A DNA stretch of 64,000 bases from contig JAEYYH010000032.1 in NCBI GenBank assembly GCA_023430885.1, positions 19,279 to 83,278 on the forward strand, read 5' to 3'. A model generated the notes under the pieces. The model worked only from the letters and a program-made list of their open reading frames with translations, did not search any database and was not told where the DNA came from. A program made the translations under genes and the position numbers. This document shows, piece by piece, positions 30,706 to 53,167 of this stretch (its first letter is position 1; the number at the start of each line of letters is the position of its first letter). The DNA is from Bacillota bacterium. Its GTDB lineage: Bacteria > Bacillota_I > Bacilli_A > RF39 > UBA660.

Positions 30706-31782
30706 TTATTTAATCATACCATTTGATAGCAATATATATAGTATACAAAATGCACCGTATATAATTGTAAGCAGGCAAATGAATACTATACTTGTAAAAC
30801 CGTTATATTTTTTATTAAGATCCTTCATAGTTAATGCTTTAACTTTTGGCTGAACTTCTAAAGTTTCTGGACCTTTTTGAATTTCTTGTTGTTTTTGCAT
30901 TAGTCTTCTTTTTTCTACAATTCTTTTTAATATTACTTTTTGATCATCAGTTAGCGAATCGAATCTGTTATTTAATGTGAATTCAAGTTCATAATCATCC
31001 ATTTGTTCAAAAATTTGTTCAGCGGGATTTTCTACTGTTACAGCTGTTTCAATTCCATTGTCATTAATTGCTTGGACATCTTCTGAAACTGTTTCTACGC
31101 CCTTCTCATCAGCTTTTCTAATTTCCATCTGCCCTAAAGTATTAAGATGAGTATAATATGTTTCACCAGTATCTCTATTAATATATATATTACGTTTTGT
31201 ATCTGCAACAAAATTATTTATATCCGTTTCTTGCATATGAATAATAGAAGCAAACTGTCTTCTTTCCTCCGGTGTTAAATCACGTTTATCAATATCAACT
31301 GTTGATACTAAGTTAGCTTCTTCTTTTTCTTTTTGCATTGCATCAATTATTTCTTCTCTATTTTGGACACCATTTGTAGTTCTATAATCCATGCTTGAGT
31401 TTTGCTTATCTTGAAATTGAGTTACAAAGTCATCTTTACTCATATTATCATCAAGTACTGTATAAGTATCATCTGGATTTTCTACCTTTATATATTCTTT
31501 ATCATCCACTTTAAAACCAGTTACATTATCTAAATTAAGACTTGATGTATTAACTTTAGTCTTATCATAATAATCTAAAATTATTGTAGCTATCTTATTT
31601 AAATCTTCAACGTTATGCTCTATTCCATAAGATTCTAAACTTCTTAACATTTCAGAATTATTTGCAACCATCTCCGGAATATTTTTTAAATATTGAGCTA
31701 ATGCCTCTTTACTTTCAAATTCACCATTATTAATTCTGCCTTTAATATCATCAATAAAATTTTCGTCATAAAATTCACTCAT
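30706..31782 (-). CDS. hypothetical C-terminally membrane-anchored protein
   Basis: 358-aa acidic soluble region followed by a single C-terminal TM helix. Confidence 0.4.
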   Translation of the reverse strand: MSEFYDENFIDDIKGRINNGEFESKEALAQYLKNIPEMVANNSEMLRSLESYGIEHNVEDLNKIATIILDYYDKTKVNTSSLNLDNVTGFKVDDKEYIKVENPDDTYTVLDDNMSKDDFVTQFQDKQNSSMDYRTTNGVQNREEIIDAMQKEKEEANLVSTVDIDKRDLTPEERRQFASIIHMQETDINNFVADTKRNIYINRDTGETYYTHLNTLGQMEIRKADEKGVETVSEDVQAINDNGIETAVTVENPAEQIFEQMDDYELEFTLNNRFDSLTDDQKVILKRIVEKRRLMQKQQEIQKGPETLEVQPKVKALTMKDLNKKYNGFTSIVFICLLTIIYGAFCILYILLSNGMIK

Positions 31783-32058: not shown

Positions 32059-32691
32059 ATGCGTATACTCAAAAAAGCAAGATTTGTTTTAGTATTAATT
32101 TCTTTTTCTGTATGTCTTGGTTTAATGAGTAGTACTTATTCAAGATATGTTGCAGGTACCACTAGTAATATTGAAGTACTATTTGCTAAATGGCAAATAC
32201 TAGTTAACAACACTGATATTACAAGTAATACAAGTTCTTCGATAACATTTGTACCCGTTATTGAAGAAAATAACTATGTTGAAGCTAATACTGTTGCACC
32301 TTCTTCAAAAGGATACTTTGATATAGCCGTTGATCCTAGTAACGTAGGAGTTTCATTTAAATATACAATTAATTTAGCAGTAGCAAATGAAAATATGCCT
32401 GACTTGATGATTACAAAATATTCAATTATTCCTTCTACTTATGTTGAAGGAGATCCACTTGAAGTTACTAACTTAACTGATAACACTATAACAAACACAT
32501 TAAATTTTGATAAAAATATTACGTCATTTAAATTCACACCTTTTACTATCAGAGTCTACTTTGAATGGTACGAAGGTACAGGTGAAACAATGACTGATGT
32601 TGAAGATACAGCTGCTGGATTATCTGCTGTTACTGATAATACAAAATTTCAAATGACCGCCAATATTAATTTCGAACAAATCTTTGAATAA
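32059..32691 (+). CDS. small secreted protein with SipW-cognate-like signal peptide (possible TasA/camelysin-like)
   Basis: 210 aa; only plus-strand gene; N-terminal h-region then STYSRYVAGTT; RBS aaaggggtctaaagtATG. Confidence 0.45.
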   Translation: MRILKKARFVLVLISFSVCLGLMSSTYSRYVAGTTSNIEVLFAKWQILVNNTDITSNTSSSITFVPVIEENNYVEANTVAPSSKGYFDIAVDPSNVGVSFKYTINLAVANENMPDLMITKYSIIPSTYVEGDPLEVTNLTDNTITNTLNFDKNITSFKFTPFTIRVYFEWYEGTGETMTDVEDTAAGLSAVTDNTKFQMTANINFEQIFE

Positions 32692-32791: not shown

Positions 32792-34021
32792 TTACAAGTT
32801 TGTTTTTGGTGCTATTATTACTGGTATTACATTACAACTTGTTGTTTTAGCTTCGCCATACATTTTAGAATTAATTTCATCAATTTTTTTAACTGCAAAG
32901 CCGTTATTACTATTATATTCATTACTTGTCCAATAACAGTTAGCTGAAGAGATATAATTAAATTTTTCATTTGAGAAATTATAATGACCATTTGAACTAA
33001 CTGCTTTAGCAATTTCTGTATTCATACGAGTACCATAATTTAATTTTCCTATAATTAAATCAGATATATTATCTCTAATTAAAGTTGATTCAATTACATC
33101 TTTTGAAGTTATTTTTAATAAATCTTCAACCGTTAAGGCTCTTGTCCCTACCGTCCATCCACTTGTTACGGACGACAGTGTCATAGCATAATCATTAAAA
33201 CTACTACTTAAGTAAGTATTTTTGACATTTGGTAACAAAGTAACTGTATCATCACCCAATGTGTTATTCGTATCTATTACGTATGTTGTAAGACAGGTTG
33301 TACTAATTTCTGTACACGCTTCATTATTTACAACATCATATAAAATAACGTCACCTAAATCATATTTAGGATCACTGGTTGTATTAGATTCTATGTATTG
33401 TTCAGCTTTTACACTAATTACAATTTGAATTGATGGTTTAATCTGATAATTCGCATCATTATTTTTTTTTGTTATTTCACTCTGTTCAAATTTATAGGCT
33501 TCTGTTCCCCATAAACTGTCTAGAGAATCAATACCAGAATCTAAAGGCCAAGATACGGAAACCTCAAATGAACTTTCCTCACCTTTAGCTAAAATATAAT
33601 TTTTACTTAAATTAATATTAATATGAAATGGATAATCGTGTGATAATACATCTTCAACAGATTCAGAAGTTGTTGCCGTATCATCTATTACATAATTATC
33701 GGCTTCATCGCCTAAAATTCTAGCAGAAACAATTGAATAACTAAGCTGAGCATCAGAATCACCCAAATTTTTAATGTTGACTAGTTCATCCACTATATCC
33801 ATTCCTGGATAAATATCAGATAAAGATATAACGATATCATTAGAAACCGGTTGACCATCTTTATCCAATTCTATATACCAAGCTTTAACACCTATTTCAG
33901 TAGAAACACTTGATAAACCACTATAAGCAAACCAAGCAAGTGTTACAGATATAAATGAAATTACTATAAAGGTTACAGACATTATATTTAATCTTAAATA
34001 TAATTTATGCTTTTTTTCCAA
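32792..34021 (-). CDS. secreted TasA-like protein with SipW-cognate signal peptide
   Basis: 409 aa; signal VISFISVTLAWFAYSG; segment IYPGMDIVDELVNIKNLGDSDAQLSY resembles the TasA/camelysin N-terminal PGD...N-G-S block; directly downstream of the sipW-like gene (sipW-tasA arrangement). Confidence 0.5.
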   Translation of the reverse strand: MEKKHKLYLRLNIMSVTFIVISFISVTLAWFAYSGLSSVSTEIGVKAWYIELDKDGQPVSNDIVISLSDIYPGMDIVDELVNIKNLGDSDAQLSYSIVSARILGDEADNYVIDDTATTSESVEDVLSHDYPFHININLSKNYILAKGEESSFEVSVSWPLDSGIDSLDSLWGTEAYKFEQSEITKKNNDANYQIKPSIQIVISVKAEQYIESNTTSDPKYDLGDVILYDVVNNEACTEISTTCLTTYVIDTNNTLGDDTVTLLPNVKNTYLSSSFNDYAMTLSSVTSGWTVGTRALTVEDLLKITSKDVIESTLIRDNISDLIIGKLNYGTRMNTEIAKAVSSNGHYNFSNEKFNYISSANCYWTSNEYNSNNGFAVKKIDEINSKMYGEAKTTSCNVIPVIIAPKTNL

Positions 34022-34066: not shown

Positions 34067-34651
34067 CTAATTACTACTAATTTTTTTTCTTCTCTCGTCT
34101 TCTTTTTCTAGCATCGTTGAAAGTATTTCAGATCCTATAATGAAAAGCAAAGGAAGTATTATAAATAAATAAAATCCTATAGTTGTGCCAACAATTCGAT
34201 AAATTATTGAAAGTATAATTGATCTATAAATAACAACGCCATATATCTGGCTTTCAGAAATAGTAGGATCTTCAAATAAGTTTGCTAATCCTTTTGTTTG
34301 GAATAGATATTTTCCATCTTCATCAGTTTTAATACTAACAACTTCATGGGTAATAACTTTATCTTTGAAATCACCAGCTGTTCCTAGATAACTAACTGCA
34401 TCACCAACTTTAATTGTTGATGGATCAACTTCTTTTGAAATTAACACATCTCCAATCTTATACTTGGGCTCCATACTTCCTGAAATTACTGTAAACATTC
34501 TATAATTGAAAAAAGATATTTTATTGTCACTGAAGCGTTGCAAACATACAACAATTATAAATCCAACAAGTATTACAACAAACATTATTTGTGCTATAGT
34601 TGCGACAATTTTATATGCTTTGCTGTTTTTAATTTCCATTAATTTTTTCAT
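34067..34651 (-). CDS. sipW: signal peptidase I, archaeal/ER type (SipW-like)
   Basis: 194 aa; TM1, catalytic VISGSMEPKYKIGD (Ser) and ITHEVV (His), C-terminal second TM typical of SipW. Confidence 0.75.
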   Translation of the reverse strand: MKKLMEIKNSKAYKIVATIAQIMFVVILVGFIIVVCLQRFSDNKISFFNYRMFTVISGSMEPKYKIGDVLISKEVDPSTIKVGDAVSYLGTAGDFKDKVITHEVVSIKTDEDGKYLFQTKGLANLFEDPTISESQIYGVVIYRSIILSIIYRIVGTTIGFYLFIILPLLFIIGSEILSTMLEKEDERRKKISSN

Positions 34652-34660: not shown

Positions 34661-35794
34661 CTACAAATAATTTTGAGTCCTTTCTAAATATTCGTCCATT
34701 GCAGACTGAAATTTCTTTTTAATATCAGTACTGCCAATTACTCTTTTTTCTTTTTCATTTTTTATTTCACTAGTTATCATAGCAATTATTTCTTCATCTG
34801 TTATTTTAATTCCACAATTTAGTAATAAAGAAACAGCTCTATGTATTTCTTTTTTTACCATTATAACAGCATATTTTGATAACTTGTCTTTTTGTTCTCT
34901 TTTAGATGAGCTTATTGAATCAAAGACACAATAATCTATCAAGAAAGATTCATCCAAAATTCCTTTTAGGACATCGTTTCCTGTAGTGTCTAAACCATCT
35001 TTAGAACCATCAGTATCTTCATAATCATAAGTTTGTAAGAAGTCCCATAATTTCATAGCAATTTGAAAATTAGGATTTTTTAAAATCATATTAGTTTTCT
35101 TAATTGGAGAAACTACAAATGCAACATGTGCTTTTTCTAAAGATTTTAACATTTCGCTTCTTTTCCAGCTAGCAATGTAATCTTTCATTTTTTTTACTCT
35201 TTTTTTAAGATCATCTAATTCTTTTTGAAAATCATTTTCTTTGCTTCCTTTTGGCATTTCTTTTGAACTTATTTTAAGTTCAACATTAACTTTTTCATAA
35301 CCATTATTAGTAGAAGCAGCATATTCTAAAACTTTATCATTTTTTGTTTTAAAATTTTCTAATGCTACTTCCTTTCTCATAATAAATCTTAACATATTGT
35401 CAATTAAAGTATAAATAAATCTATTTTCATATGTGTTAAATGTTTCTTCATGATGCTCGATTAATATTTTTGATGGACGAACTTCATTAGTAACTTTATC
35501 TATTTTTTCAATAAAATGAGTGTGCTTAGATAAGTCTTTTACACTTGCTACAGTAATTTTTCGAGCTTTCTCTATTTTCACTACTTCTTCTTCTTTAATA
35601 AGAGCCACTTTTGGGTTTCTAACAATATTATCAATATATGGGCAAGAAAATTCAATCTCATTTACCCAGTCGAAAGACATGGAATCATTAGTAATTTCGG
35701 ATTTAAAAGACATATCCGAACTTACATTTTGCATAAACAGTTCGCTTTTTTCTGCTAATTTTTCATCACTAGGAAATTTTTTGGCTCTAGCCAT
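34661..35794 (-). CDS. hypothetical cytoplasmic protein, partner of McrB-like NTPase
   Basis: 377 aa, KE-rich, no TM; 16 bp downstream of 35811..37340. Confidence 0.4.
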   Translation of the reverse strand: MARAKKFPSDEKLAEKSELFMQNVSSDMSFKSEITNDSMSFDWVNEIEFSCPYIDNIVRNPKVALIKEEEVVKIEKARKITVASVKDLSKHTHFIEKIDKVTNEVRPSKILIEHHEETFNTYENRFIYTLIDNMLRFIMRKEVALENFKTKNDKVLEYAASTNNGYEKVNVELKISSKEMPKGSKENDFQKELDDLKKRVKKMKDYIASWKRSEMLKSLEKAHVAFVVSPIKKTNMILKNPNFQIAMKLWDFLQTYDYEDTDGSKDGLDTTGNDVLKGILDESFLIDYCVFDSISSSKREQKDKLSKYAVIMVKKEIHRAVSLLLNCGIKITDEEIIAMITSEIKNEKEKRVIGSTDIKKKFQSAMDEYLERTQNYL

Positions 35795-35810: not shown

Positions 35811-37340
35811 CTATACAGACTTTTTAATTCTTTCTAAGTATTCAATACATTCCTTCATATTGTCATCGCCAAATTCTTTTTTTAAATAGGCAATGAAAGG
35901 ATCTATTTCATCACGAATTAATAATATATTTAATTGATCAAACTTACGGAAAATTTTCTTAGCAATAAAGTAATCGATACCATCAACTTCTTTACCACCA
36001 CAAGCAACATAAACTGGTACAAACGTATTTAATTGTTTCATAATACGATTACCAAAAGCTACTCTGAAATGTTTGATAACATAATCATCCATTAATCTAA
36101 TTTTTTCTAAATTTTTATCAGAAACCTTTTTGTTTTCAACTGCTGCTGCAAACAAGGATTCAAGATAACTTGAATTAAGATCTATAGCATCTTGTTCTCT
36201 ACATTTAAAAGGCTCTATTTTGGTATTAATATCAATAGGCATTGCACGGTCATAAACTTTATCAGTAACCATAAATGTTGAATCATCATTATTAATTGTA
36301 CCAATATACCATAAGTTACCAGGCAATTTTAATTTTCCCTCTTTTATACGAACAGGGTCACTAGGCCATGAGTTAGTAACTAACTCAATAATCCATTCTT
36401 CCCTAGAAGGCATTTCTAGAATAGATAACATTTCAGCAAAATAATACTCAACACGAGCGATGTTCATTTCATCCAAAATGATTGTATGTACATCATCATC
36501 AAGTCCTGATATATATAATTCCGCTAATACATCAGTCTCATTAAACTTTTTTGTAAATTCATTGAAATATCCTAATAATTCAGTTTTATCACGCCAAGAA
36601 GGCTCTACTGATGCTATACAAGAATCTTTTTTTACAAACTTTCCCCAAGCATATGCAAGTGAAGTTTTACCTGTTCCTGATATACCTTGTAAAATTACTA
36701 GCTTACCGCAAGCTAAGCCTGCAAAGAACGCTCTTAAAAGTGAAGCATCATAATATAAATGTAACTGACTAGCAGAATAACATCTAAAATTATCTAACAT
36801 TTCATCTAATGTAAAATTATTACCATAATTTTTAACCTTAAGTGTCTTGAATTTTTGATCTATTTTATCAAGTTTAGGAAATCTAATGTCACCAACATTT
36901 TCCTGTTTTTTATCTTCTTCTTTAGGCTCTTCTTCTGGATTTTCTGCATCATTAGGATTTAATCCTAATTGAGAAACTTTCATAGCCATAATTTCATTTT
37001 TTTCTTTCATTAATTTCTTTACTTGGCTATCTAAATCAGCAATTTCGTCTAATAAGTCTTCTTGATTCAATTTATTTTTTCTAAATCTTATTAACTTTCT
37101 AAGACTAAATAAAATGATAAATACAATTAAACCCAATATAATAACTAGAGTGGCTATAACTGAACCAACTAGTAGCCACTCTGATCCTTTAAAACTATCT
37201 TGATAACTATTTATTATTTTCATATATTCTTTGTAGTTAATCATTTGGGTTAAGCCATTAACAAAACCTTTAATTATTAAAAGCACCCCATCAAAGAATA
37301 TTGAAATAAACTCGTAGAAAAATCTTAAAAAAGTATTCAT
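35811..37340 (-). CDS. membrane-anchored McrB-like (AAA_5 family) NTPase
   Basis: 509 aa; two N-terminal TM helices, coiled-coil/acidic linker, Walker A GISGTGKTS, Walker B IILDEMNIARVEYYF (McrB DEiNRa-like), GTINNDDSTF...DRAM sensor region. Confidence 0.6.
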   Translation of the reverse strand: MNTFLRFFYEFISIFFDGVLLIIKGFVNGLTQMINYKEYMKIINSYQDSFKGSEWLLVGSVIATLVIILGLIVFIILFSLRKLIRFRKNKLNQEDLLDEIADLDSQVKKLMKEKNEIMAMKVSQLGLNPNDAENPEEEPKEEDKKQENVGDIRFPKLDKIDQKFKTLKVKNYGNNFTLDEMLDNFRCYSASQLHLYYDASLLRAFFAGLACGKLVILQGISGTGKTSLAYAWGKFVKKDSCIASVEPSWRDKTELLGYFNEFTKKFNETDVLAELYISGLDDDVHTIILDEMNIARVEYYFAEMLSILEMPSREEWIIELVTNSWPSDPVRIKEGKLKLPGNLWYIGTINNDDSTFMVTDKVYDRAMPIDINTKIEPFKCREQDAIDLNSSYLESLFAAAVENKKVSDKNLEKIRLMDDYVIKHFRVAFGNRIMKQLNTFVPVYVACGGKEVDGIDYFIAKKIFRKFDQLNILLIRDEIDPFIAYLKKEFGDDNMKECIEYLERIKKSV

Positions 37341-39592
37341 TCTTGTTCCCCCCTGAAATCACCAATTTTGTCAACTATATCTTCATAAATAACATTATCC
37401 AAAAGTTCATCTGGAATATATGAAATCACACTTGCCATATTTGGTATTTTTTTATTAATAAATACATAATCAGCAATATATAAATCACCACGATTTTTTT
37501 CTTTAATTGTTGTTTCTTTATTAAATACTAAAGCAAATTTATAACCCATCTTTTTAATTCTCTTTAAAAATTGTTTGTTTATTAATAAGTCTTCAAATGT
37601 TGTTAAAATCAGAACATTATCTTTAGCATATTTGTCATCAATAACTCTTAATAACTTTTCAAACTTTTTCTCTTTAGCATATAAACTTTTAGGAATATAT
37701 AAAATATATTTTCTATTAAAATTAGCTGAAACCATATCTTTTATTAATTGCATTGATAATAAATTTAATAGTACTGATAACTTATCTTCAGCAACAACGC
37801 CTTCGGTATAAGTTTTATCAATAACATAATCACTATAAACTTTACTAAAAGAAATATTATGTTCAAGTTCTAATCCGTACATATCTTTCTTATTACTTAA
37901 TTTATTAAATTTTAAATTAAACATATTAGTTTCTAGTTTTTGTAAAAAATATCCAAATATATCATTATATTTTTTTTGGATCTGTCCAATTTTAGCAACT
38001 ATTTGTGCTTCTTTTTGAATATCCCAATCTTTATAAAATTTTGCTATCTCTTTTTTATAAAATTCATTTCTAACCTTAATTTCTTCTATAGAATCTTTAG
38101 CACTCTCTAAATTAGCAATTAATATAAAGATATTATTATAAGTATCCACAATTTCATTATATCTCTTGTTACTACCTTTATAATTACTAATTAGTTCGTT
38201 TGCAACTTTATTTATAACTTTTTTATTTTTTAAAACTGAACTTTTTCCTGTAGACTCGATATCTTTATCACCAAAGTAATTATAGTATTTAGCATTGATG
38301 TATGTATTAATAAATATATTTTTAACTGTTATTTCTTTAGTACGAATTTTTTCATCAACTAAGATATCTATTAACTCATTTATCTCTTCTTTTTTTATAA
38401 ACATTGATGTTTCAATAATATTTTTGTGATTACCTAGTTTACTCTTTATTGATTCTAAGTTTATTTTTGTTAGAGTTTCATTATCTTCAACTATTGGTTC
38501 TTCTTCTTTTTCAGAATTCAAATCAGCATTCTTTTTTTGTTTTTTATCTTTTTGCTCAGATACTTTCATTTCATTTCTAGCGATTTCTAGTAAAGTGTCG
38601 CCTATTTCAGATGCATCAACTGGAATAACTCTAAATAATGATGTTTTATCTAAATCGTCCTCAATATCTTCTTCTTCCTCTTTTTGTGGTGCAACTTTAT
38701 ATTTATCATCAACTTCGTTAGAATCAACTGAAATAACTCTAAAAATGGATGTTTTTTCTAATTCTTCTTCTTTATGAATTTCTTCTTCAGACTTTTGAAC
38801 TGAATGTATTAACTCATCTTCTTCTTTCTCAGAATTAGCGGATACAACTTTGAAAAGTGTATTTTCTTTTTGAGCTTCAATTTTCTTTTCTTCATATTTT
38901 TTAGCATGAGCTTTTTTATATTCTTCTAAACTTTGGATTTTACCACGATGTTTATTTATATATTTAATAACTTTTTTCCTAATATTCTTAAATAATATTC
39001 CGCCTTTTTTTACTAAAGATTCAAAGATCAAATACATATTTTCTTCTTTAATATCTTCACCTTTAGCTTTTTCTGCATCTATTTTATTCTTTTTGACTGC
39101 CATATTAAATAAGAATAAAGTAATAATAAGAGTTATCAAAACACCTGGATTAAATAATGTTTTTCTAAGAATACCAAAATTACCTAGTATTTTTACTACT
39201 TTACCTACAATTTGACTTTGATCTATTGGGTCATCTTTTGCATTATTAGCATCACCCTTAGTAATATAAGTCCCATTGTAAACTTCGATAATTCTGTGTG
39301 TTATATATTCTTTATCTAATCTATAAGTTACTATATCATCAAGTTTAACTTTTTGTGTTAGTTTTACAACTATCCAATCACCGGCATTAATTGTATCCTC
39401 CATACTTCCTGTTTGGACTTCAAATATAGAATATCCAAAAAAATCAGTATAATCATTACCAAGAAGTTTAGTTTGAACACCGGTATATATAGAGACAATT
39501 AAAATAACACCAAATATAAAAATCAATATATTTAATAAAAAATTAATAATTTTCTCAATAAAATTCATATTTTTTAAATTCATATTTATCAT
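37337..39592 (-). CDS. SipW-type signal peptidase domain fused to long cytoplasmic extension (tandem repeats and degenerate EAL-like C-terminal region)
   Basis: 751 aa; TM1, QTGSMEDTINAGDWIVVK (Ser) and ITHRIIEV (His) matching canonical SipW at 34067, TM2, then ~580 aa KE-rich region with three T(S/L)(I/L)F(R/K)V(I/V)... repeats; last ~200 aa align loosely to EAL domain blocks but lack DDFGTG. Confidence 0.55.
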   Translation of the reverse strand: MINMNLKNMNFIEKIINFLLNILIFIFGVILIVSIYTGVQTKLLGNDYTDFFGYSIFEVQTGSMEDTINAGDWIVVKLTQKVKLDDIVTYRLDKEYITHRIIEVYNGTYITKGDANNAKDDPIDQSQIVGKVVKILGNFGILRKTLFNPGVLITLIITLFLFNMAVKKNKIDAEKAKGEDIKEENMYLIFESLVKKGGILFKNIRKKVIKYINKHRGKIQSLEEYKKAHAKKYEEKKIEAQKENTLFKVVSANSEKEEDELIHSVQKSEEEIHKEEELEKTSIFRVISVDSNEVDDKYKVAPQKEEEEDIEDDLDKTSLFRVIPVDASEIGDTLLEIARNEMKVSEQKDKKQKKNADLNSEKEEEPIVEDNETLTKINLESIKSKLGNHKNIIETSMFIKKEEINELIDILVDEKIRTKEITVKNIFINTYINAKYYNYFGDKDIESTGKSSVLKNKKVINKVANELISNYKGSNKRYNEIVDTYNNIFILIANLESAKDSIEEIKVRNEFYKKEIAKFYKDWDIQKEAQIVAKIGQIQKKYNDIFGYFLQKLETNMFNLKFNKLSNKKDMYGLELEHNISFSKVYSDYVIDKTYTEGVVAEDKLSVLLNLLSMQLIKDMVSANFNRKYILYIPKSLYAKEKKFEKLLRVIDDKYAKDNVLILTTFEDLLINKQFLKRIKKMGYKFALVFNKETTIKEKNRGDLYIADYVFINKKIPNMASVISYIPDELLDNVIYEDIVDKIGDFRGEQE
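38590..38880 (-). repeat. three internal protein repeats (about 35 aa each) within the SipW-fusion gene
   Basis: TLFKVVSANSEKEEDE / TSIFRVISVDSNEVDD / TSLFRVIPVDASEIGD followed by acidic spacers. Confidence 0.5.
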
Positions 39593-39845
39593 TCCTACTC
39601 CATTTTTCGACCATATTCTATCTTATATAATTTTATCACATTAAAATACTATTTACAATAATATGAAACTTTTTTCTAATAAAAAATCAAATGCAAAAAT
39701 GAGCTTTATTTTAAAAGAAATTACTAAAAAACTATAGTTATTTTATTTTAATTAAAGTATAAACTTAAATTAATAAAGACACATAATCATTGATCATGTG
39801 TCTTTAACTTATATTATTAATTATTTTTATAAATACTGGCCTTGA

Positions 39846-40379
39846 TTATTTTATATAATCTTCTTTACCATATTTAATTTCAACAACTAGAGCATAAAAT
39901 TCATAAATAAATATTAAGAAACTTGGTACAAGAACTATAAATAAGAAACCCCATTTAGATTCTATTACAGATAAATAAGTACCTATATTGTTATAAACTT
40001 TACTAGCTTCACCTACTACAAATTTTGTTGAATATGTAGAACCATTTTCATAAGTAATTGCTTCATCAGCTTCATGAACTTCGCCTACTTTACCTAAATC
40101 AATACTTACGCTACCATCGCTAGCTACTTTATAAACAAATATTTCATCATCAACAGCGATTTCAGTTATTTTTCTTGATTCAACAAGTACTAAATCACCT
40201 TTTTTAAAATTATCCGAAGTAATATCGCCTTTTATTAAAATTAGAGAAGTGTCCCCAAATTGAGTAACTCCATAGTCATTATAATTTAATAGTAATACTG
40301 TCATTGCTATTGCAAAGCCAAAGAATACTACTCCTAAAACTCCTATAACAATTTTTTTAATGATCTCTAGTATCTTCAT
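39846..40379 (-). CDS. SipW-like membrane protein lacking catalytic Ser/His (possible inactive paralog)
   Basis: 177 aa with the same TM - beta-rich domain - TM topology and GD..V.V spacing as SipW, but SGSMEP replaced by FGDTSL and no ITH motif. Confidence 0.3.
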   Translation of the reverse strand: MKILEIIKKIVIGVLGVVFFGFAIAMTVLLLNYNDYGVTQFGDTSLILIKGDITSDNFKKGDLVLVESRKITEIAVDDEIFVYKVASDGSVSIDLGKVGEVHEADEAITYENGSTYSTKFVVGEASKVYNNIGTYLSVIESKWGFLFIVLVPSFLIFIYEFYALVVEIKYGKEDYIK

Positions 40380-40465: not shown

Positions 40466-41392
40466 TTAACAACCATCTGTTTCTTCAAGAGTAAATTCAC
40501 TAGCATTATACGTTGTATTAAAGCTTTTACTATAAAACATATAGCTTAAACTATCTTTCGCGTTGATATTAAACTTAATCTCATTTATGTAATTATTTGC
40601 GTCTGTATTAGCAGTACTATACTCGCTACTATCTGCATTTATTATTAATTTACTAGCGTCCCAAGTTACTTTAACGCATTTCGTAGTTGAGGAAGGATTA
40701 GTAACAATTAGTCTGTCATAATTAGAATAATTTTTATAAGATAAAGTTACATCATTACTTTTAGTACCGGCTTTATGAAGTGTAAAATCTCCACTTAAGG
40801 TTTTACTGTATGGTGTTGTGCTAGATACTGTAACATTAACTACGACATCATTAATTTCATAATTAGTATCGGTTAAAACAACATCAAAATAAAGGTTCTT
40901 TGTTACAATTTGATTAACCCAATCATACCCGTTTAGTTCACAATCTGTTTTATTAAAAGAGCTAACATCTACTTGATCACCAGTTTTATTACTACATGCT
41001 TGCAAACTAGATAAAACTCCATCCTGTGAATTTAAATCAGTACCATTCATATGGCATTCAGCATAAGCTGCTGCATCTCCTGTTACAGTACATGTGGCAG
41101 TATAACCTATATCATAATCTGTTATAACACTTTGATTAAGACTATTATTAATACTAAAGTTAATACTGCCACCATCCCACTGACTATTTGCATTCTTAAC
41201 TACAGTTCCTGAAGCTAATTGTTCACTGCTAAAGTAAAAACCTTTAGATTTCAAGTAATAATTCCAAACAGAATTTGAAATATATTTTGCAGAAGTAATG
41301 CCATAAATAACTGCTATGCTACAAACTAACAATATAGATATTAAAATTATATGTTTTTTCTTACTTTTCATAAACATCATCCTAATCTTCAA
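40466..41392 (-). CDS. secreted Ser/Thr/Asn-rich protein with signal anchor (SipW-cognate-like)
   Basis: 308 aa; h-region then GITSAKYISNS; C-terminal Cys. Confidence 0.4.
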   Translation of the reverse strand: MKIRMMFMKSKKKHIILISILLVCSIAVIYGITSAKYISNSVWNYYLKSKGFYFSSEQLASGTVVKNANSQWDGGSINFSINNSLNQSVITDYDIGYTATCTVTGDAAAYAECHMNGTDLNSQDGVLSSLQACSNKTGDQVDVSSFNKTDCELNGYDWVNQIVTKNLYFDVVLTDTNYEINDVVVNVTVSSTTPYSKTLSGDFTLHKAGTKSNDVTLSYKNYSNYDRLIVTNPSSTTKCVKVTWDASKLIINADSSEYSTANTDANNYINEIKFNINAKDSLSYMFYSKSFNTTYNASEFTLEETDGC

Positions 41393-41933
41393 GTTTTTGC
41401 CAACTTCTAATCTCTATATTAATGTAATCCACCAAATCAGAATATGATGTAGAATTATATTCATTTGGGAAATCTATTTTTAATATGTAATTATCAAGTT
41501 CTTCAGTACTATGGCCTATTTCCTCTGTTGGGGTTGTACACACTAACTCATTTGATGAGTTTCGTGTATACGTTTCATCACAAGTCATTATTAATTCCTC
41601 AGTCTCACCATTCAATTTATAAAGTTTAATTGCAAGTGGAACTAAATGATATGTTTTGACTGTCATTTGATATTCAGCAGTAATGTTACTTTTACTACCA
41701 GAAGCATTATTGCTTACAGCAAAGGTATATTCTTTACTATCCCCAGGATTTAAATCAATTAAAGGTAACTGAATTTGATTTGAACTTTCGGCATTAAATA
41801 TAAATTTTGCTATACTTTGATCACCTGAACTAAGTGAAGTATTTGAATGGAAAATAGAATATGTTATACCAAAACAGAACACTATTGATATTAATATAAA
41901 TAGAGTTATTAAAATTTTGTATTTTAATTTCAT
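41382..41933 (-). CDS. TasA/camelysin-like secreted protein
   Basis: 183 aa; signal FCFGITYSIFHS; IDLNPGDSKEYTFAVSNNASGS parallels B. subtilis TasA NLKPGDKLTKDFQFENNGS. Confidence 0.5.
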   Translation of the reverse strand: MKLKYKILITLFILISIVFCFGITYSIFHSNTSLSSGDQSIAKFIFNAESSNQIQLPLIDLNPGDSKEYTFAVSNNASGSKSNITAEYQMTVKTYHLVPLAIKLYKLNGETEELIMTCDETYTRNSSNELVCTTPTEEIGHSTEELDNYILKIDFPNEYNSTSYSDLVDYINIEIRSWQKLED

Positions 41934-41941
41934 ATCTTTAC

Positions 41942-44900
41942 CTATTTAACAATAAAATGTTTTTCTATTGTTCCTATCTTTTTAGTATCATCATATAATT
42001 CAAAAACAAATTTATACCCTGTATTTTCAAAACTAGCTGTTATCAAGTTTAATCCAAAACTGTTGTTTTCAGTTGGAGTAGCCGAAACATAATAAACATT
42101 TTGTGAAACTGCATTTAAATTATCGCTAACATAAGAAGCTAAATCAACAATTGTATAATCTTGATTATATGCTGTTAAATTATTTTTCTTATATAATGAA
42201 ACTCTTATATTTGGATTAATTAATAAACCATTTTGAGAAATATTAAACAAAACATTTACTGATTCACTTGTTTTATTTATTATACGATTTGTATCGTTCA
42301 TACTAGCGTTGAAACCATATATAGTATTCAAACTTGTTCTTGTTACATTAACTGGAATAAGTATATTTTGCGCACCTAGTTCGTCACAATATTCACCATC
42401 AATAGAAGTATAATTTGAAACTTTCAAATAATATGTTCCTTCTGGTAAATCATCATTATTGGCATATGTTGTTACTGTAAGAGTTTTAGTAACATCAGCA
42501 ATTCCATTATTTAGATTAATATGAATCATATTATCTGATTCAGGATAATATGTAGCATTTCCTATTTTAAATATAAAATTTTTCAAATGTGATTTTTCAA
42601 TAGTATTGCCATTGCTATCAACAAGCTTTATTAATAAACCAATTTGTTTATCTTCAAAAGTTGTGTCAACTATTTTAAAATCATTTATAAACTTATAATT
42701 TAAACCACTAGTTAAATTGATATTAGTAGTAGAATTACTATTAAATTCTATTGCATTTCCACTATAATCAGTAGTTAATGATAAAGTAGCCTTTGTATCA
42801 GTAGCATTTACTGTAGAGTATATATTAAATTTATTAATTGTATTATATAAAGTTGGTCTAACATTAATATCACTTGGGCTACGTAGTTCCATAGATAAAC
42901 TAACATCATTATAATTTACGGAAATGTCGGTATCAGCAAGATCCATAACAATTGTGAAATCCTCTGTAACTACACCATTATTATAATAAGTTGTTTCAGT
43001 ATAATAATTATTAACTGTTGCTGTCCCTATTTCTTTAAATAAAGTAAATGGATATGTTGCTTTTTTAATACAATTTAAATCTTCAACGCCACAACTACTA
43101 TTATAATTATAAATATCTGTAGCAGTTGTTATTTTATATTCATAAACTTTTTTTGTAGCATTATCTATTAAGGTTAGTTTTGTTCCTAATGGAAGAAGCA
43201 TATTTGCAACTAAGTTATGAGTATAGTCTGTTAAATTAGTTGCTTCTGAATTTGAATAACTAAAGTCTATCGTAATAGTTGATTTATCAGTTATATAAGG
43301 ATCTGCATTTAAATAACTTGAAGAGTTTCTTCCAATTACTAAATTTGACTCAGTATAACCATCTAAATTAATATAGTCAGTATTTATGTAAGTAACATAA
43401 TCAAAACTATCCACTATTTTTATATATACAACTTGTTTGCCAGTATTTTGTATTAATATTTCATTAGAATATGTAGTCCATTTATCATTAGATAATGCAT
43501 CTAATTCTGCAGTATTTAGTGAATCATTAGTAATGTAATATTCAATACTTGATACTCCTGAAATCGCATCTGATGCATCTACTGTAATAGTTTTTTGTCT
43601 ATCAATATATATACCATCCAAATTTGATTTTAAACTTGTCCACTTATAATCATCAAGATTAACACTAGCTTTTACACCCGGCAAATCTAAAACTAATACA
43701 TCAGTATTTAAATATGTAACATTATTATCATAATCTACAACTTTAACATATATAACATAAACACCTTCTGTTGTTATTTGTTCAATATCACTATATGAAG
43801 TCCATGCTGTTATTTGAGATATTTCTGTACTTGTAAGTGGTGTACTAGAATTGCTAATATAATAATATTTTTCTTTAACAGGGTTTAATTCATCAGCATC
43901 TTCAATACTAAAAGTAATATTAGAAGTTAATCTTAAGTTATTTAATTCATAACTTAAATTATTCCATGAATATGCACTTACATTTATATTTGCTATTGGT
44001 TTATTAATATCATCAATAAACAATATTGGTAATGAATCAGTCTCATATATCCATGCATTTTCATTATTTGTTACGATGTCTTGAAAATCCACGAATTCAT
44101 TAAAATGTAGAACACTTATATCTACACTTTTTGTTTTCAAGTTATCTAAGGTAGTTAATACAAAATCACCATTTGTTACTCCGCCTTTTATAGCAGAAAC
44201 ACCATTAACATAATATGAATTGGTTATATTAACATTTGAATTATATATAGTTCCAATACTATAATCTGAAGCTGATGTATTAAATGTATTACTTATTGAA
44301 ATAGCACCGGTATTATTAGATGCAATACCAATTAAACCACCAAAATTTGTGGAAGTTATATAACCAGTATTATAACTTTTTTCTATATTAATATCATTAA
44401 TACTTTTTTCGATAATACCTACTAAACCACCGCTTATATAAGTACTTTTAATATTACCAGTATTATAAGATTGATTTACACTAGTTGAATTATTAGTAAC
44501 CCCTACTAAACCCCCACTAATTGAATAACCATATATAGAACCTTTATTTATTGTATTTTCTATTGTTGTATTGTTAGAAATTGCAACTATACCTGCAGAA
44601 ACTGCGTATTTATAGGCAATGTTATAACTTAAATTAGAGAAAGTCAATGTATCCCCTTCAGTTGCATTAGTATATGTCAAAACAGGCACATTATTTAGTA
44701 TATTAGTACCTAAATCAATTGAAAAGTTTCCGCCTGTTACTACTTGTCCATTTATAGTAATCGTAGCATCAGCACCATTTAAACCATCAATAACATAGTT
44801 ACCAGTAATTGATGTTGAAACAATCTCTGCACCAGTTAAAGGAATATTATTTGTTAAATCTATATAATTTGTTGTCTCATAATTTTGCATGTTTATTACA

Positions 44901-45640
44901 GGAGATGCTGGAGTACTACTAATATTCTTTGAGTCTAAAGTACTTTTACCAACTACATAACCATCAAATAAAATATTACTTAATGAAGCATTATTAGTTT
45001 TAGACGCAATACCTGCTGTTATTGTCCCACCATATATCATAGCATTTTCAACATATAAATTTTTAACTTCACCTTGTAAATTAGTAAATAGAGCTAATTC
45101 TTCACTAGTTTCATTAGTCATATATAAACCATATATTCTAAATGAATTACCATTAAAAATACCCTTAAAATTATTTAGTGAATTAAATAAATTAACTGTT
45201 CCTATTTCTGTACCAGTCATATCCACATTATCATAATATTTATTAGTATAAGGATTAACATAATATGTATGTCCGTCTAAAATATAGTTTATTTTATTAT
45301 TTTCATCATAATTAAATACGCCATTATTTATTACAATGTCGTTACTTAAAGTAAAATATGTATTATCGTAATCATTAGTTGCAAGCTGAGAATAAAAATA
45401 TGCTAACTCTGAACCTGAAGAGATTAAATATGGGTCACTAGATGAACCAGTACCACTTTTATAACTGCTAGCTACACTTCCATCCCATACAGGATTAGTT
45501 ATTAAAGTATTTCTATTTTTATATCTTGCTAAAGTTGGTATACCTACGGATAATATTAAAGCAAATATTAATATTAAAACCAAATAAGTAATTTTTTGAG
45601 TTTTTGATAATTTATTAATAAAATCTATTATTACTTTCAT
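41942..45640 (-). CDS. giant secreted surface protein with GLUG-motif repeats
   Basis: 1232 aa; signal anchor; repeated SGGLVG / FGGLIG blocks (GLUG motif), Asn/Thr/Tyr-rich beta-rich body; first gene of a four-gene operon. Confidence 0.55.
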   Translation of the reverse strand: MKVIIDFINKLSKTQKITYLVLILIFALILSVGIPTLARYKNRNTLITNPVWDGSVASSYKSGTGSSSDPYLISSGSELAYFYSQLATNDYDNTYFTLSNDIVINNGVFNYDENNKINYILDGHTYYVNPYTNKYYDNVDMTGTEIGTVNLFNSLNNFKGIFNGNSFRIYGLYMTNETSEELALFTNLQGEVKNLYVENAMIYGGTITAGIASKTNNASLSNILFDGYVVGKSTLDSKNISSTPASPVINMQNYETTNYIDLTNNIPLTGAEIVSTSITGNYVIDGLNGADATITINGQVVTGGNFSIDLGTNILNNVPVLTYTNATEGDTLTFSNLSYNIAYKYAVSAGIVAISNNTTIENTINKGSIYGYSISGGLVGVTNNSTSVNQSYNTGNIKSTYISGGLVGIIEKSINDINIEKSYNTGYITSTNFGGLIGIASNNTGAISISNTFNTSASDYSIGTIYNSNVNITNSYYVNGVSAIKGGVTNGDFVLTTLDNLKTKSVDISVLHFNEFVDFQDIVTNNENAWIYETDSLPILFIDDINKPIANINVSAYSWNNLSYELNNLRLTSNITFSIEDADELNPVKEKYYYISNSSTPLTSTEISQITAWTSYSDIEQITTEGVYVIYVKVVDYDNNVTYLNTDVLVLDLPGVKASVNLDDYKWTSLKSNLDGIYIDRQKTITVDASDAISGVSSIEYYITNDSLNTAELDALSNDKWTTYSNEILIQNTGKQVVYIKIVDSFDYVTYINTDYINLDGYTESNLVIGRNSSSYLNADPYITDKSTITIDFSYSNSEATNLTDYTHNLVANMLLPLGTKLTLIDNATKKVYEYKITTATDIYNYNSSCGVEDLNCIKKATYPFTLFKEIGTATVNNYYTETTYYNNGVVTEDFTIVMDLADTDISVNYNDVSLSMELRSPSDINVRPTLYNTINKFNIYSTVNATDTKATLSLTTDYSGNAIEFNSNSTTNINLTSGLNYKFINDFKIVDTTFEDKQIGLLIKLVDSNGNTIEKSHLKNFIFKIGNATYYPESDNMIHINLNNGIADVTKTLTVTTYANNDDLPEGTYYLKVSNYTSIDGEYCDELGAQNILIPVNVTRTSLNTIYGFNASMNDTNRIINKTSESVNVLFNISQNGLLINPNIRVSLYKKNNLTAYNQDYTIVDLASYVSDNLNAVSQNVYYVSATPTENNSFGLNLITASFENTGYKFVFELYDDTKKIGTIEKHFIVK

Positions 45641-45764
45641 AATTACCCTTCCTTCATAAAAAAATTATAGGACTTAGTATACTTTATATAAATTATTATA
45701 TCATAATATGACATATTTTGCACCACAAATATAACTTGCAATATATACAAAAAGAAACTCCTTT

Positions 45765-47432
45765 TTAAGAAGTTTCTTGCTCTTTTTTCTTTTCATTTAC
45801 ATTGATTTTTTCAACCTGAGCCATGAACCAGATCTTTTCAACTGTCGTTGAACTTTTCTCAATTTCATTTACTCTTAATAAGAATAAAATCTTATTTAAT
45901 AGTGTCTCTAATTCATCTGGATTTAAATTTTCTTCATTAAGATTAATATTATCCAGTCTATATTTATTCATGATAATTCTTGTAATATTTGTCTCTTCGA
46001 ATACTGCAACACCATTAATTATTATATTAGTTGGATTCATTGCAAATAAATCAAATTCATCACTATACTTTGCTACTTCTTCATGAACTGTAGTATTAAA
46101 TGCAGTTTGTATTGCCTTTTTTTTAAAGTAATCAAAACTATAATATAAGTGTAACAAATCAGATACAGTTAAAGAATCATTTAGTACTTCCATAACTTTT
46201 TCTTTAAAATATTCTTGAGCATAAATTTTATATAAATCATATAATTCCTTGGCAATTTTTATTGAATCAATTTTTAGTTTCTTTACAGCAGCACCTTTTG
46301 AAAAATCAAATAATAGTGGTTCACCACCAAATATTTTTTTATTCATTTTTTCAAGTTGTGATTCTTTTAAAGAAATTTTTGCTAGAGTTTCTTTTAGTGT
46401 TTTATTAGGATTATTTTTATCATTACTTCCTTTAGTAGAAGAAGATTCAACTTTTGTAATTTCCTTTTCATACTCTTTCCTAAAATTTTCAATTAATGGA
46501 GTGAATTTTATATAATTATTATATTCTTCAACATTGTTTTTTAATTTTCTTAGGGTATCATAAAACTTATCCATAAATGCTTTATCTGATATATTTGAAG
46601 AGTTAATCATTAATGAGTTGTACGCACCTATTCTTGTCTTGCTATCTTCAAAATAACTATTCATATCAATAGCTCCTGATTTAGCTAATTTTATAATATC
46701 TGCTACACTTTCACTATCTACTTCATTTAATTGATTATAAGCAATTTTAAGTTTATCTAAGCAATCTTGATAGCTAGTAATACTATTTTCAACCATTACT
46801 TTCTTTTGCAATTTATTAATATAATCTGTGAATTTTTTCTCATACTTATTAATTAATTTCAGAAAATTTAGTTCTATATGCTGAATTATTTCAGGATTGA
46901 CCCAATAAATTTTTTCAAATACTTCTGATAACTTATCACAACTACATTCTTTTGCATTTTTATTTTCCAAAAAGCATGTCATATATTCATGAACATAACA
47001 TGTATAATCAAAATCGCTACTTGTAAGTTTAATATCTGCTGATTCAAATTTTATTAAGAACTGATTAATTACTTCATTTAAAGAATCAAAATTAAAGTTA
47101 TAATAATTGCTTATTTCATAGATTAAATTATCAAAGCCAAGTTTTTCATTAACTGTATTTGTTGGATTTAGGATAAATCTAACATGCTCGAGTTCAGTTA
47201 CATTTCTATTTAGTTTTTCTAAACTTTTATCACTGTCTTTTACATTAAAACTTTTGCTCTTTGTATCAATATATTTTTTGACAGCAGCTTTATAATCAAC
47301 ATATTTTTCTGTAATTGAATCTATTTTTTCATTGAATTTCTTAATGTCTCTTTTTGTATTAGTTGGCATTGTAGAAATTAAGGTTGTTTTCATTTCGATA
47401 TCTTCGTCAATAAACTTCAAAAAATTAATCAT
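45765..47432 (-). CDS. hypothetical cytoplasmic protein
   Basis: 555 aa, no TM, KE-rich helical. Confidence 0.4.
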   Translation of the reverse strand: MINFLKFIDEDIEMKTTLISTMPTNTKRDIKKFNEKIDSITEKYVDYKAAVKKYIDTKSKSFNVKDSDKSLEKLNRNVTELEHVRFILNPTNTVNEKLGFDNLIYEISNYYNFNFDSLNEVINQFLIKFESADIKLTSSDFDYTCYVHEYMTCFLENKNAKECSCDKLSEVFEKIYWVNPEIIQHIELNFLKLINKYEKKFTDYINKLQKKVMVENSITSYQDCLDKLKIAYNQLNEVDSESVADIIKLAKSGAIDMNSYFEDSKTRIGAYNSLMINSSNISDKAFMDKFYDTLRKLKNNVEEYNNYIKFTPLIENFRKEYEKEITKVESSSTKGSNDKNNPNKTLKETLAKISLKESQLEKMNKKIFGGEPLLFDFSKGAAVKKLKIDSIKIAKELYDLYKIYAQEYFKEKVMEVLNDSLTVSDLLHLYYSFDYFKKKAIQTAFNTTVHEEVAKYSDEFDLFAMNPTNIIINGVAVFEETNITRIIMNKYRLDNINLNEENLNPDELETLLNKILFLLRVNEIEKSSTTVEKIWFMAQVEKINVNEKKKEQETS

Positions 47433-47577
47433 TTTTTTCTTCCACCTTCTCTTCTTGTACTATTTTTTTATCTTCGAGAAATTGTAAGAAATTAGTTATA
47501 TCTTCATAAACCTTAATTAATTCACTTAAACTAAGTGTTGATATATCAAAATTCACTTTTTCTTCTTCTTTTTTCAT
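47425..47577 (-). CDS. small acidic protein (50 aa) translationally coupled to 45765..47432. The ORF track does not list this ORF.
   Basis: ATG at 47577 with RBS aagggtga; MKKEEEKVNFDISTLSLSELIKVYEDITNFLQFLEDKKIVQEEKVEEKND; stop overlaps downstream ATG (ATGATTAA). Confidence 0.3.
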   Translation of the reverse strand: MKKEEEKVNFDISTLSLSELIKVYEDITNFLQFLEDKKIVQEEKVEEKND

Positions 47578-47597
47578 TAAAATCACCCTTTTTTTTC

Positions 47598-48776
47598 TTA
47601 ATTATAACCCGATAAATCTTTTATGAAATTAATTGCAATAGTAATAGCAGCACCTTTTGAATATGTTTCTAAGCTATCTATATCTTGTCCTTCAATCCAA
47701 ACATAAGCTCTTACTTTTGTTATACCACTTGGAATTTGAAAGATTGGATTTGTAAATGTAGTAGTTGTCTTTTGCAAGGCAAAATGCTCTGTATCAAGTG
47801 GTATACCTGTACCTTCTTGTCCATTTGAATGTTGAAGATTTCTTCCTTCATTTATAATGGCATATGTTGGATTGTATGTACCATCCACCAAAGTAATATC
47901 GCTTTCTTTAGCTGTCTTAATAGATCCTTCAGAATGCGCTGTACTATTAGGTTCATAAATAACCATTTCGCAATTATTATTGCATACAATATTTTGAATA
48001 TTGTTAACACTTGATTTTAAAGGAACACTTCCTACTTTTATAAGACCTATTCTCATAGAATTCATTATTCCACTCATAGAATCAATAATATCTTCTTTTG
48101 TTGCTTCATCTGTGTCAGCATATTTATTATAATCAAAATCAATAGCAGTATCATCATCAAAATACAGATTATCGCTTAGTGGTGAACCACTAACATTTTT
48201 TAAAAAGATATCAAATGCAATGTAAACATTAGCAGCTGATGAGTTATTTTGATCAACTAATGTCGTATTTAATAATCGTTCACCTGGAACAATCTTTTTC
48301 TTATTTTTAACTATTTCTCCTACATAGACATCAAATTTATCACTATTAGAATTTGGAATTCCAATAGTTGAAACAGGCCATAAACCGGCTGAAGCCCACT
48401 GATTAGTGTTGGTTGGATATTTATTCTCTAAGTCTTTAATTACACTATCTAGAGATATCTCAACTGAATCCGAAAAGTCAATACCGTCAAGTGAAATAAA
48501 TAATCCACTGTTACTAGATACGGACATATCAAGAAATTTAACTTTAACATTTAAGGATGCAGATAACCAAGCGTATGAAGAAACTATTAACAAAATACCA
48601 GTAAAGAAAATAATAAATATTAATAATCTAGGATCTATTTTCTTTATTCTTATTCTTTGACCTTTTAGTATTTTTCTAACACTTTTCTTCTTTCCTTTAT
48701 TATTAATCTTTTTCTTGTTTTTAGAATTACTATTTTTCTTTACTTTTAAATTTTCTTTCGTATTTTGTACGGTCAT
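47598..48776 (-). CDS. secreted TasA-like paralog 1 (SipW-cognate signal SSYAWLSA)
   Basis: Start taken at second Met (GAGGTG RBS); very basic n-region, h-region, SYAWLSASLNVKVKF; divergent homolog of the three downstream paralogs, lacks the DUF5011 tail. Confidence 0.5.
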   Translation of the reverse strand: MTVQNTKENLKVKKNSNSKNKKKINNKGKKKSVRKILKGQRIRIKKIDPRLLIFIIFFTGILLIVSSYAWLSASLNVKVKFLDMSVSSNSGLFISLDGIDFSDSVEISLDSVIKDLENKYPTNTNQWASAGLWPVSTIGIPNSNSDKFDVYVGEIVKNKKKIVPGERLLNTTLVDQNNSSAANVYIAFDIFLKNVSGSPLSDNLYFDDDTAIDFDYNKYADTDEATKEDIIDSMSGIMNSMRIGLIKVGSVPLKSSVNNIQNIVCNNNCEMVIYEPNSTAHSEGSIKTAKESDITLVDGTYNPTYAIINEGRNLQHSNGQEGTGIPLDTEHFALQKTTTTFTNPIFQIPSGITKVRAYVWIEGQDIDSLETYSKGAAITIAINFIKDLSGYN

Positions 48777-48802
48777 AAAGCACCTCATTCAAAATATAAA
48801 TA

Positions 48803-50366: not shown

Positions 50367-50385
50367 AAATACATCTCTCTCTCTA

Positions 50386-51078: not shown

Positions 51079-51149
51079 TTCCTACCCATGTCCTTTATGT
51101 GTAACTTCACAGAATATTCATATGCATATATAGATACCCTACTATAATA

Positions 51150-51186
51150 TACAATATTATTGTAACATAGTCTAAAACATAATTCA
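51150..51186 (-). promoter_or_regulatory. sigma-A type promoter (TTGAAT-17-TGtTACAAT)
   Basis: On minus strand: -35 at 51181..51186, extended -10 at 51158..51163 plus TG. Confidence 0.45.
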
Positions 51187-51220
51187 ACATTTTTTTCACT
51201 ACAAGTATTATTTAATTTAC

Positions 51221-51255: not shown

Positions 51256-51291
51256 TAATATTTTAACAATAATTAATTATTAATATAATAA

Positions 51292-53130: not shown

Positions 53131-53167
53131 TAGGTTGTTTTATATTAAACTTTATTGTTTATTATAG

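Follow-up and report, generated by a model that had tools for sequence, protein, structure and literature searches.

The 64,000-nucleotide window analysed here (positions 19,279 to 83,278 of contig JAEYYH010000032.1, assembly GCA_023430885.1, from a Bacillota bacterium) contains a gene for a protein in which a signal peptidase of the SipW type continues into a tail of about 580 residues, predicted to be cytoplasmic. The tail is comprised of a long charged linker, a helical domain and a domain predicted to have the EAL fold. The fusion gene is followed by genes for a membrane-anchored McrB-like GTPase, a McrC-like protein, a second, short SipW-type peptidase and a secreted protein (Table 1). 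The helical domain and the EAL-fold domain together form a module that is an autonomous protein family, found in four architectures. Judged by gene order, the window protein is best read as a Rosetta-stone fusion of a predicted active signal peptidase with a cytoplasmic trio (module, McrB-like and McrC-like proteins), which would tether the peptidase to the GTPase machine.

The open reading frame (ORF) of the fusion is uninterrupted from 39592 to 37337. Public gene calls start it at the second ATG, and because a GGAG/AGGA sequence precedes both candidate ATGs, the start is ambiguous by three codons. A search of a public protein collection returned 992 homologous proteins at E<=1e-3. All 120 matches listed are uninterrupted ORFs of 650-873 amino acids and come from independent assemblies (NCBI, ENA, JGI and Logan). 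When one genome was scanned for each species, relatives turned up in at least 117 genomes. The independent assemblies and these species-representative genomes rule out that the ORF is an assembly or annotation artefact joining two genes, an explanation which we regard as next to inconceivable. All are metagenome-assembled genomes (MAGs) of uncultured low-GC Bacilli, "Mollicutes" or "Tenericutes" from gut, rumen and anaerobic digesters. The title of many MAG records with the Bacilli-type cluster (L005, L008, L012-L017 and others) reads 'uncultured Muribaculaceae bacterium', and that of one record 'Ignavibacteriales'; as they share this cluster, the record taxonomy of those bins looks wrong.

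The first 170 residues make up a peptidase of the S26B (SipW/Sec11) type, which is flanked by two transmembrane (TM) helices and in which Ser, His and Asp residues do not vary, in agreement with the preliminary description of this locus, which was made from the nucleotide sequence without database searches. The match to TIGR02228 (sigpep_I_arch, the model of signal peptidase I of the archaeal/ER type) spans residues 21-161 and scores 71.8 bits, above the curated cut-off of 51.85 bits. In an alignment of 100 homologues, S63 (QTGSM), H99 (ITHR), D114 (GDAN) and D120 are invariant. We take S63, H99 and a conserved Asp to be the catalytic residues, by analogy with the motifs of Sec11 and SipW. In the catalytic set of S26B enzymes, a His replaces the Lys of the bacterial enzymes. 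In the AlphaFold2 (AF2) model, helices 6-43 and 149-176 flank a beta-rich peptidase domain, which in Foldseek matches LexA/UmuD, Streptococcus pyogenes SipA and SpsB.

The fusion resembles Bacillus subtilis SipW and the Sec11/archaeal S26B enzymes in its Ser-His(-Asp) set, in its N- and C-terminal TM helices and in being clustered with putative substrates that have T-x-A-type cleavage sites. It is no SipW orthologue, since it scores 58.6 bits against the Bacillus SipW equivalog NF046067, for which the cut-off is 190. The S. pyogenes SipA/LepA-type pilus chaperone (PDB 4n31; Foldseek match to the fusion, E 6.6e-4) is another protein with the signal-peptidase fold and is encoded in a pilus locus; unlike it, the fusion keeps the catalytic residues, and no sortase or LPXTG context was seen. 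The head is predicted to be an active peptidase that would process the co-encoded surface proteins. Typical S26B members are about 190 amino acids long and lack the cytoplasmic extension found here. A Lys-rich segment comes right after the second TM helix; this segment, the positive-inside rule and the topology of SipW and Sec11 indicate that the remaining 580 residues should be cytoplasmic.

The linker (residues 171-389) is rich in Lys and Glu, as had been noticed before, with 38 K, 39 E and 15 D in 220 amino acids. In the full-length AF2 model, the predicted local distance difference test score (pLDDT) is below 50 over residues 239-327 and 353-385. Two clear copies of a conserved motif are present in the linker, EEELEKTSIFRVISVD at residue 275 and EDDLDKTSLFRVIPVD at residue 311, and a degenerate copy, ENTLFKVVSANSE, is found at about residue 243. 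The three tandem repeats that had been described are therefore a slightly generous count: two of them stand, and the third is degenerate. Counted with a regular expression, the motif occurs in 0-3 copies per protein and at least once in 99 of 121 homologues.

Residues 390-751 are modelled as a rigid module in which a helical domain is packed on an EAL-fold barrel without the EAL catalytic set. The mean pLDDT of the full-length model is 71.9. A model of the tail (residues 372-751) has a pLDDT of 83 and a predicted template modelling score (pTM) of 0.84, and the domain parts of the two models agree. The helical domain gave no specific fold match. The barrel is shorter than an EAL domain (about 195 amino acids, of which about 165 are aligned, out of about 250). 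Neither Pfam nor NCBIfam scans gave an EAL match to the fusion, so that the EAL profile PF00563, named in the preliminary description as a check, did not detect the window protein; of 20 family members, a single one matched PF00563, at only E 0.053. A profile search of PDB sequences with the tail found nothing, and neither did hhalign of the tail against YkuI, the query sequence of which was checked as identical to PDB 2bas. Since every sequence-level search was negative, the EAL assignment is one of fold.

The positions of the EAL residues were obtained by manual strand-by-strand mapping onto YkuI from the predicted strands, without superposition. By this mapping, the E of ExL falls on the variable position 575, the metal-binding Asn on the near-invariant P634, the ExxE on I662 and T665, the DD on V689 and F690, the catalytic Lys on the invariant F711 and the Q of QGY on a Gly. 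The R of ExLxR is likewise replaced. The E of AEGVE, kept as E/D737, is the sole EAL residue retained. The earlier proposal that the last 200 or so residues have an EAL fold and lack its catalytic residues is thus borne out by the model and the mapping, and the replacement of the catalytic residues makes phosphodiesterase activity of the tail very unlikely. The best-conserved stretch of the tail is LEHNISFSKVYSDYVIDKTYTEGVVAEDK (residues 576-604), at the mapped ligand face of the EAL fold. The invariant residues of the tail in the 100-homologue alignment (H578, N579, F582, Y586, S587, G598, A601, E602, Y629, K640 and K643) cluster in HNISFSKVYSDYIIDKTYxEGIIAEDK. Both AF2 models are least confident in the 576-604 stretch, with pLDDT below 50 at residues 581-593.

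Several degenerate EAL proteins have non-enzymatic functions: LapD and FimX are receptors of cyclic di-GMP (c-di-GMP), and YdiV and STM1697 bind FlhD. The tail has no detectable sequence similarity to any of them and, unlike them, has a family-specific helical domain in front of the barrel. The residues that contact c-di-GMP in receptor-type EAL domains, LapD and FimX among them, are not kept in the tail by the manual mapping. These comparisons bear on the possibility that the tail is a LapD-like receptor, in which the degenerate barrel binds c-di-GMP or another nucleotide and a signal passing through the second TM helix switches the extracellular peptidase. Such a receptor would account for the strongly conserved loop at the mapped ligand face, for the retention of an acid equivalent to the E of AEGVE, and for the invariance, in the stand-alone family described below, of an Asp at the C-terminal end of beta-5. 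It is difficult to reconcile with the loss of conservation at the E and R of ExLxR and at the N and Q positions, with the lack of an EAL sequence signal, and with the occurrence of the module as a soluble protein that has no membrane part. In addition, conformational transmission is implausible through a largely disordered linker of about 220 residues between the second TM helix and the module. A receptor function therefore seems unlikely, and the nucleotide-gated sensor of the preliminary description is not supported: by the manual mapping, the E of ExL, R, N, ExxE, DD, K and Q are all replaced.

The module was found to be independent of the peptidase. A profile of the tail, searched against 1.84 billion representative proteins, retrieved 377 representatives at E<=1e-3, which fall into four architectures. 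In the first (a), the module is fused to a SipW predicted to be active, as in the window protein. The second (b) is a stand-alone protein of 320-357 amino acids without TM segments, the whole length of which covers profile positions of about 20-355. In the third (c; P0226, 689 amino acids), the module is fused to a SipW paralogue without conserved Ser or His; over its first 178 residues this protein shares 35% identity (E 5e-33) with a 177-amino-acid SipW-like paralogue also encoded in the window, and the resemblance is not to the active-type peptidase. The fourth (d; P0191 and P0200, about 590 amino acids) has no peptidase and consists of a short ectodomain, one TM helix, a coiled coil and the module.

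The gene order around the stand-alone form is known from L083, a human-gut contig, and L085 (GCA_947594985). Both have a SipW (170-172 amino acids), a pilin-like protein, the module (339-347 amino acids), the McrB-like protein, the DUF2357 protein and a SipW, in this order. In L083, the 172-amino-acid SipW is 38% identical to residues 7-166 of the fusion and the 347-amino-acid module protein is 28% identical to residues 390-691. The L083 gene between SipW and the module was considered as the missing linker and rejected; it encodes a secreted pilin-like protein with the signal ...RTLA/RYE (slash, cleavage site). Form (d) is encoded directly 5' of a McrB-like gene of 509 amino acids, which it overlaps by 4 nt and after which a DUF2357 gene follows. 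Form (c) also overlaps the next gene by 4 nt, and the contig ends inside that gene, which is unannotated. A 4-nt overlap with the next gene is common to the membrane-attached forms, and in the contexts examined the module gene is directly upstream of the McrB-like/McrC-like pair, whether a peptidase is attached or not. These contexts indicate that the constant unit is composed of the module, the McrB-like protein and the McrC-like protein, and that the attachment of the module varies. The McrB-like gene of L083 (11085-12765) is called as two ORFs (192 and 382 amino acids) around a Gly-rich low-complexity stretch, which could be due to a frameshift, a sequencing error or a true division of the protein into a membrane/coiled-coil part and a GTPase part.

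The standard example of a restriction motor driven by GTP is McrBC. The McrB-like protein of the window has an N-terminal hydrophobic segment, a heptad-like region (residues 55-125) and an AAA+ core. When the PDB was searched with a profile built from seven homologues, only Escherichia coli McrB was matched (E 9.4e-6), in an alignment that covers Walker A, Walker B and the signature motif. This motif, GTINNDDS, is invariant and can be read in two ways, as NxD with a further D behind it, the form described in PMC11090510, or as NxxD; in the HMMER alignment its NNDD stands opposite the NTAD of McrB. In spite of the hydrophobic and heptad-like segments, no match to Pfam DivIC/FtsB was found at E<=0.1. 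The start of the McrB-like gene overlaps the stop of the fusion gene by 4 nt, as expected from the co-operonic arrangement with a membrane-anchored McrB-like NTPase recognised earlier. In the McrC-like protein, which has an N-terminal DUF2357 domain, a Pfam scan detected no nuclease domain. Synteny was counted in 82 fetched loci related to the window. The gene after the fusion is McrB-like in 81 of the 82; the McrC-like gene is present in 77, the SipW gene in 78 and the gene for the 409-amino-acid secreted protein in 72, and the exceptions that were checked are contig ends. Conservation within the cluster is highest for the McrB-like protein, with 59-79% identity, whereas most copies of the fusion have 33-57%.

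The name CoCoPALM has been given to a large clade of McrB GTPases of the NxD type in which the GTPase is joined to an FtsB-like segment with a TM helix and a coiled coil (Bell et al. eLife 2024, PMC11090510). In the searchable text of that paper, the clade is given one paragraph and its analysis is deferred to a later publication; its NxD-clade relatives, the CoCoNuTs, are predicted to be defence systems. The window locus has a McrB-like GTPase with a predicted N-terminal TM segment and coiled coil, an adjacent DUF2357 McrC homologue, a Bacillota host and three proteins of the signal-peptidase family (the fusion, the 194-amino-acid SipW and the 177-amino-acid paralogue). By these sequence features it fits CoCoPALM on everything testable here, the NxD versus NxxD reading and the FtsB homology excepted. 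The searchable text of PMC11090510 makes no mention of a peptidase with a 580-residue cytoplasmic tail, of an EAL-fold module or of the module as a constant third component. A literature search found no follow-up paper on CoCoPALM, and searches combining SipW with EAL, and McrB with pilus and signal peptidase, gave the CoCoNuT paper as the only relevant one and no SipW-EAL fusion or EAL-fold component. In a paper on bsa of Clostridium perfringens, McrB appears only in a strain genotype. The system type is thus already named; new here are the module as a family of its own and its place as a constant third subunit.

The McrBC ancestry suggests another function, in defence or conflict. Phage infection would be sensed by the GTPase pair derived from McrBC, and the peptidase with its tail and the secreted proteins would be effectors or decoys, acting by surface remodelling or abortive infection. 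In favour of it, restriction is the ancestral role of McrBC, the PADLOC candidate defence family PDC-M26A matches the McrB-like protein (8e-33), and the related CoCoNuTs are predicted to serve in defence (PMC11090510). Against this, the McrC-like protein has no detected nuclease domain, the defence-system libraries gave no matches for the fusion, the McrC-like protein or the SipW genes, and most of the cluster is made up of signal peptidases and of proteins whose signals can be cleaved. The genes are moreover conserved rather than variable, in strict chromosomal synteny over more than 100 species. We consider a defence role improbable.

The adjacency of the module to the McrB-like/McrC-like pair, with or without a peptidase, points to docking or adaptor work rather than for a peptidase-specific sensor. 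The reading which we favour, with a confidence only slightly above even, is that the tail is an adaptor or docking subunit that holds the peptidase at a membrane-anchored McrB-like/McrC-like GTPase complex. The peptidase head would remove the signal anchors of co-encoded surface or fibre proteins outside the membrane, and on the cytoplasmic side the tail would bind the McrB-like ring, the McrC-like protein or both. It might do so through the repeated motif of the linker and through that face of the EAL fold on which the conserved loop 578-604 lies. With the peptidase held at the GTPase machine, processing or assembly of the fibres might be coupled to the GTPase cycle.

Several observations weigh against such an adaptor. 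The free-standing modules do not have the linker motif, which means that the motif is not essential for docking. The conserved, flexible 578-604 loop, as placed by the model and the mapping, would fit a small-molecule site equally well, and the PADLOC match of the McrB-like protein points towards defence. Identity of the secreted neighbours with TasA or camelysin found no support at the sequence level, as they have no sequence similarity to TasA or Peptidase_M73 (PF12389); the word 'pilus' is consequently founded on the motifs of the signal peptides, on the presence of peptidases and on a label already in print.

Alternatively, the tail could be a passive scaffold, a spacer or oligomerisation device uncoupled from the GTPase, with the adjacency of the genes reflecting co-regulation and nothing else. 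A long, low-complexity linker, a repeat number that varies from 0 to 3 and the loss of the EAL-fold catalytic residues are what would be expected of a scaffold. The module, on the other hand, is conserved over its full length in four architectures, has many invariant residues (H578, N579, E602, K640 and K643 among them) and always abuts the McrB-like gene, with the 4-nt overlap in its membrane-attached forms; a purely passive tail is accordingly given little credence.

Taken further, the adaptor reading leads to a speculative proposal, which we hold to be possible and rather less than probable. The module, a hexameric McrB-like GTPase and a nuclease-less McrC-like protein might form a GTP-driven membrane machine that energises or gates SipW-dependent assembly of surface fibres in monoderms. 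This would be a new, restriction-enzyme-derived class of NTPase-coupled pilus biogenesis, with an EAL fold as the adaptor between motor and peptidase. The core of a McrBC-type GTPase appears in any case to have been reused: it is membrane-anchored, has a partner without a detected nuclease and is tied to signal peptidases and secreted proteins, here by gene fusion. For the CoCoPALM systems, which have so far been named only, the fusion offers a direct and testable physical link, and the catalytically dead EAL fold, not mentioned in the searchable literature, supplies a third constant subunit. If confirmed, the non-enzymatic uses of the EAL fold would extend to lineages and contexts without an evident connection to c-di-GMP. 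The locus is also a pointer to a surface structure, so far unstudied, of uncultured Bacilli that abound in gut and rumen.

Table 1. Features of the fusion gene and its surroundings (window positions; residue numbers refer to the 751-residue protein; slash, signal cleavage site)
Feature	Position	Strand	Description or basis
Fusion gene, whole ORF	37337-39592	-	SipW-type peptidase, linker, helical domain and EAL-fold domain; 751 amino acids (748 from second ATG)
Peptidase head, residues 1-170	39083-39592	-	TM1 (~14-37), extracytoplasmic S26B domain, TM2 (~149-170); TIGR02228, invariant columns, Foldseek, AF2
S63 codon	39404-39406	-	fusion gene
H99 codon	39296-39298	-	fusion gene
Linker, residues 171-389	38426-39082	-	K/E-rich, cytoplasmic; long helices 185-242 and 327-356, disordered stretches; pLDDT, composition
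Repeated motif, residues ~240-344	38561-38875	-	E[DE]ELxKT[SA]x[FY]R[VI][IV][SP]VD; regular-expression count, alignment
Helical domain, residues 390-553	37934-38425	-	all-helical, predicted to pack rigidly on EAL-fold domain; tail model
EAL-fold domain, residues 554-751	37340-37933	-	predicted (beta/alpha) barrel, truncated, catalytically degenerate
Best-conserved stretch, residues 576-604	37781-37867	-	mapped EAL ligand face
McrB-like GTPase	35811-37340	-	509 amino acids, membrane-anchored, coiled-coil; profile against PDB, PADLOC, synteny
McrC-like protein	34661-35794	-	377 amino acids; PF09823, E 1.5e-11; synteny
Short SipW-type signal peptidase	34067-34651	-	194 amino acids, canonical; TIGR02228, 74.5 bits; synteny
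Secreted protein	32792-34021	-	409 amino acids; signal ...SVTLA/WFAYSG; last gene of core unit
Convergent secreted protein	32059-32691	+	210 amino acids; signal ...MSSTYS/RYVA
SipW-like paralogue	39846-40379	-	177 amino acids; TM, beta domain, TM; L083 homologue against TIGR02228, E 1.3e-9
Extended -10 promoter-like site	39630-39658	-	in 253-nt gap 5' of fusion gene
Terminator-like hairpin	39774-39806	-	15-bp stem, T-rich tail; between upstream genes and fusion gene
Upstream genes	40466-48788	-	308, 183, 1232, 555, 53 and 396 amino acids

The genes downstream of the McrB-like gene are separated by gaps of 9-45 nt. The canonical short SipW, 2.7 kb downstream of the fusion, is the separate signal peptidase that had been noted nearby. 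It reads TKGLANLFEDP at the place of TKGDANNAKDDP in the fusion, so that the first Asp of GDxN is replaced by Leu; this position is also Leu in L071 and is Ile in L083. The replacement suggests that the two peptidases may differ in activity or specificity. The 177-amino-acid paralogue has no conserved Ser or His across 56 homologues, in which it is like S. pyogenes SipA, and is probably non-catalytic.

The secreted neighbours carry signal peptides of the SipW type, as was pointed out earlier. The 210-, 183-, 308-, 409- and 1232-amino-acid products have in common a conserved hydrophobic segment near the N-terminus, after which comes [ST]-x-[AS]/x-[FYW]; the 396-amino-acid product has a TM segment and a similar site, ...SSYA/WLS. 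The motif resembles the SipW cleavage site of the TasA type. A profile of the family of the 210-amino-acid protein found nothing in PDB or Pfam. The 555- and 53-amino-acid upstream products appear to be cytoplasmic and rich in coiled coil. The 53-amino-acid ORF (47425-47586, minus strand) is acidic and overlaps the start of the 555-amino-acid coiled-coil gene by 8 nt. A gene of 45-56 amino acids occupies the same slot in L001, L002, L083, L085, L086 and L087, so that the ORF probably encodes a genuine small component of the system.

The upstream genes do not adjoin the core block in several of the genomes. The hairpin and the promoter-like site fit the block from the fusion through the McrB-like, McrC-like and SipW genes to the gene for the 409-amino-acid protein as a separate transcription unit. 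An Rfam scan of the window found nothing. At the cluster border, positions 30706-31782 (minus strand) encode a 358-amino-acid protein with a C-terminal TM segment, which has no homologue in the 82 related loci and is particular to this genome; a TetR regulator and ABC transporters come after it. Just upstream of the cluster (48906-54691, minus strand) are three paralogous proteins of about 500 amino acids, each with a C-terminal Bact_surface_Ig-like domain (PF16403). In L001 and L002, too, the cluster has one PF16403 gene at its flank.

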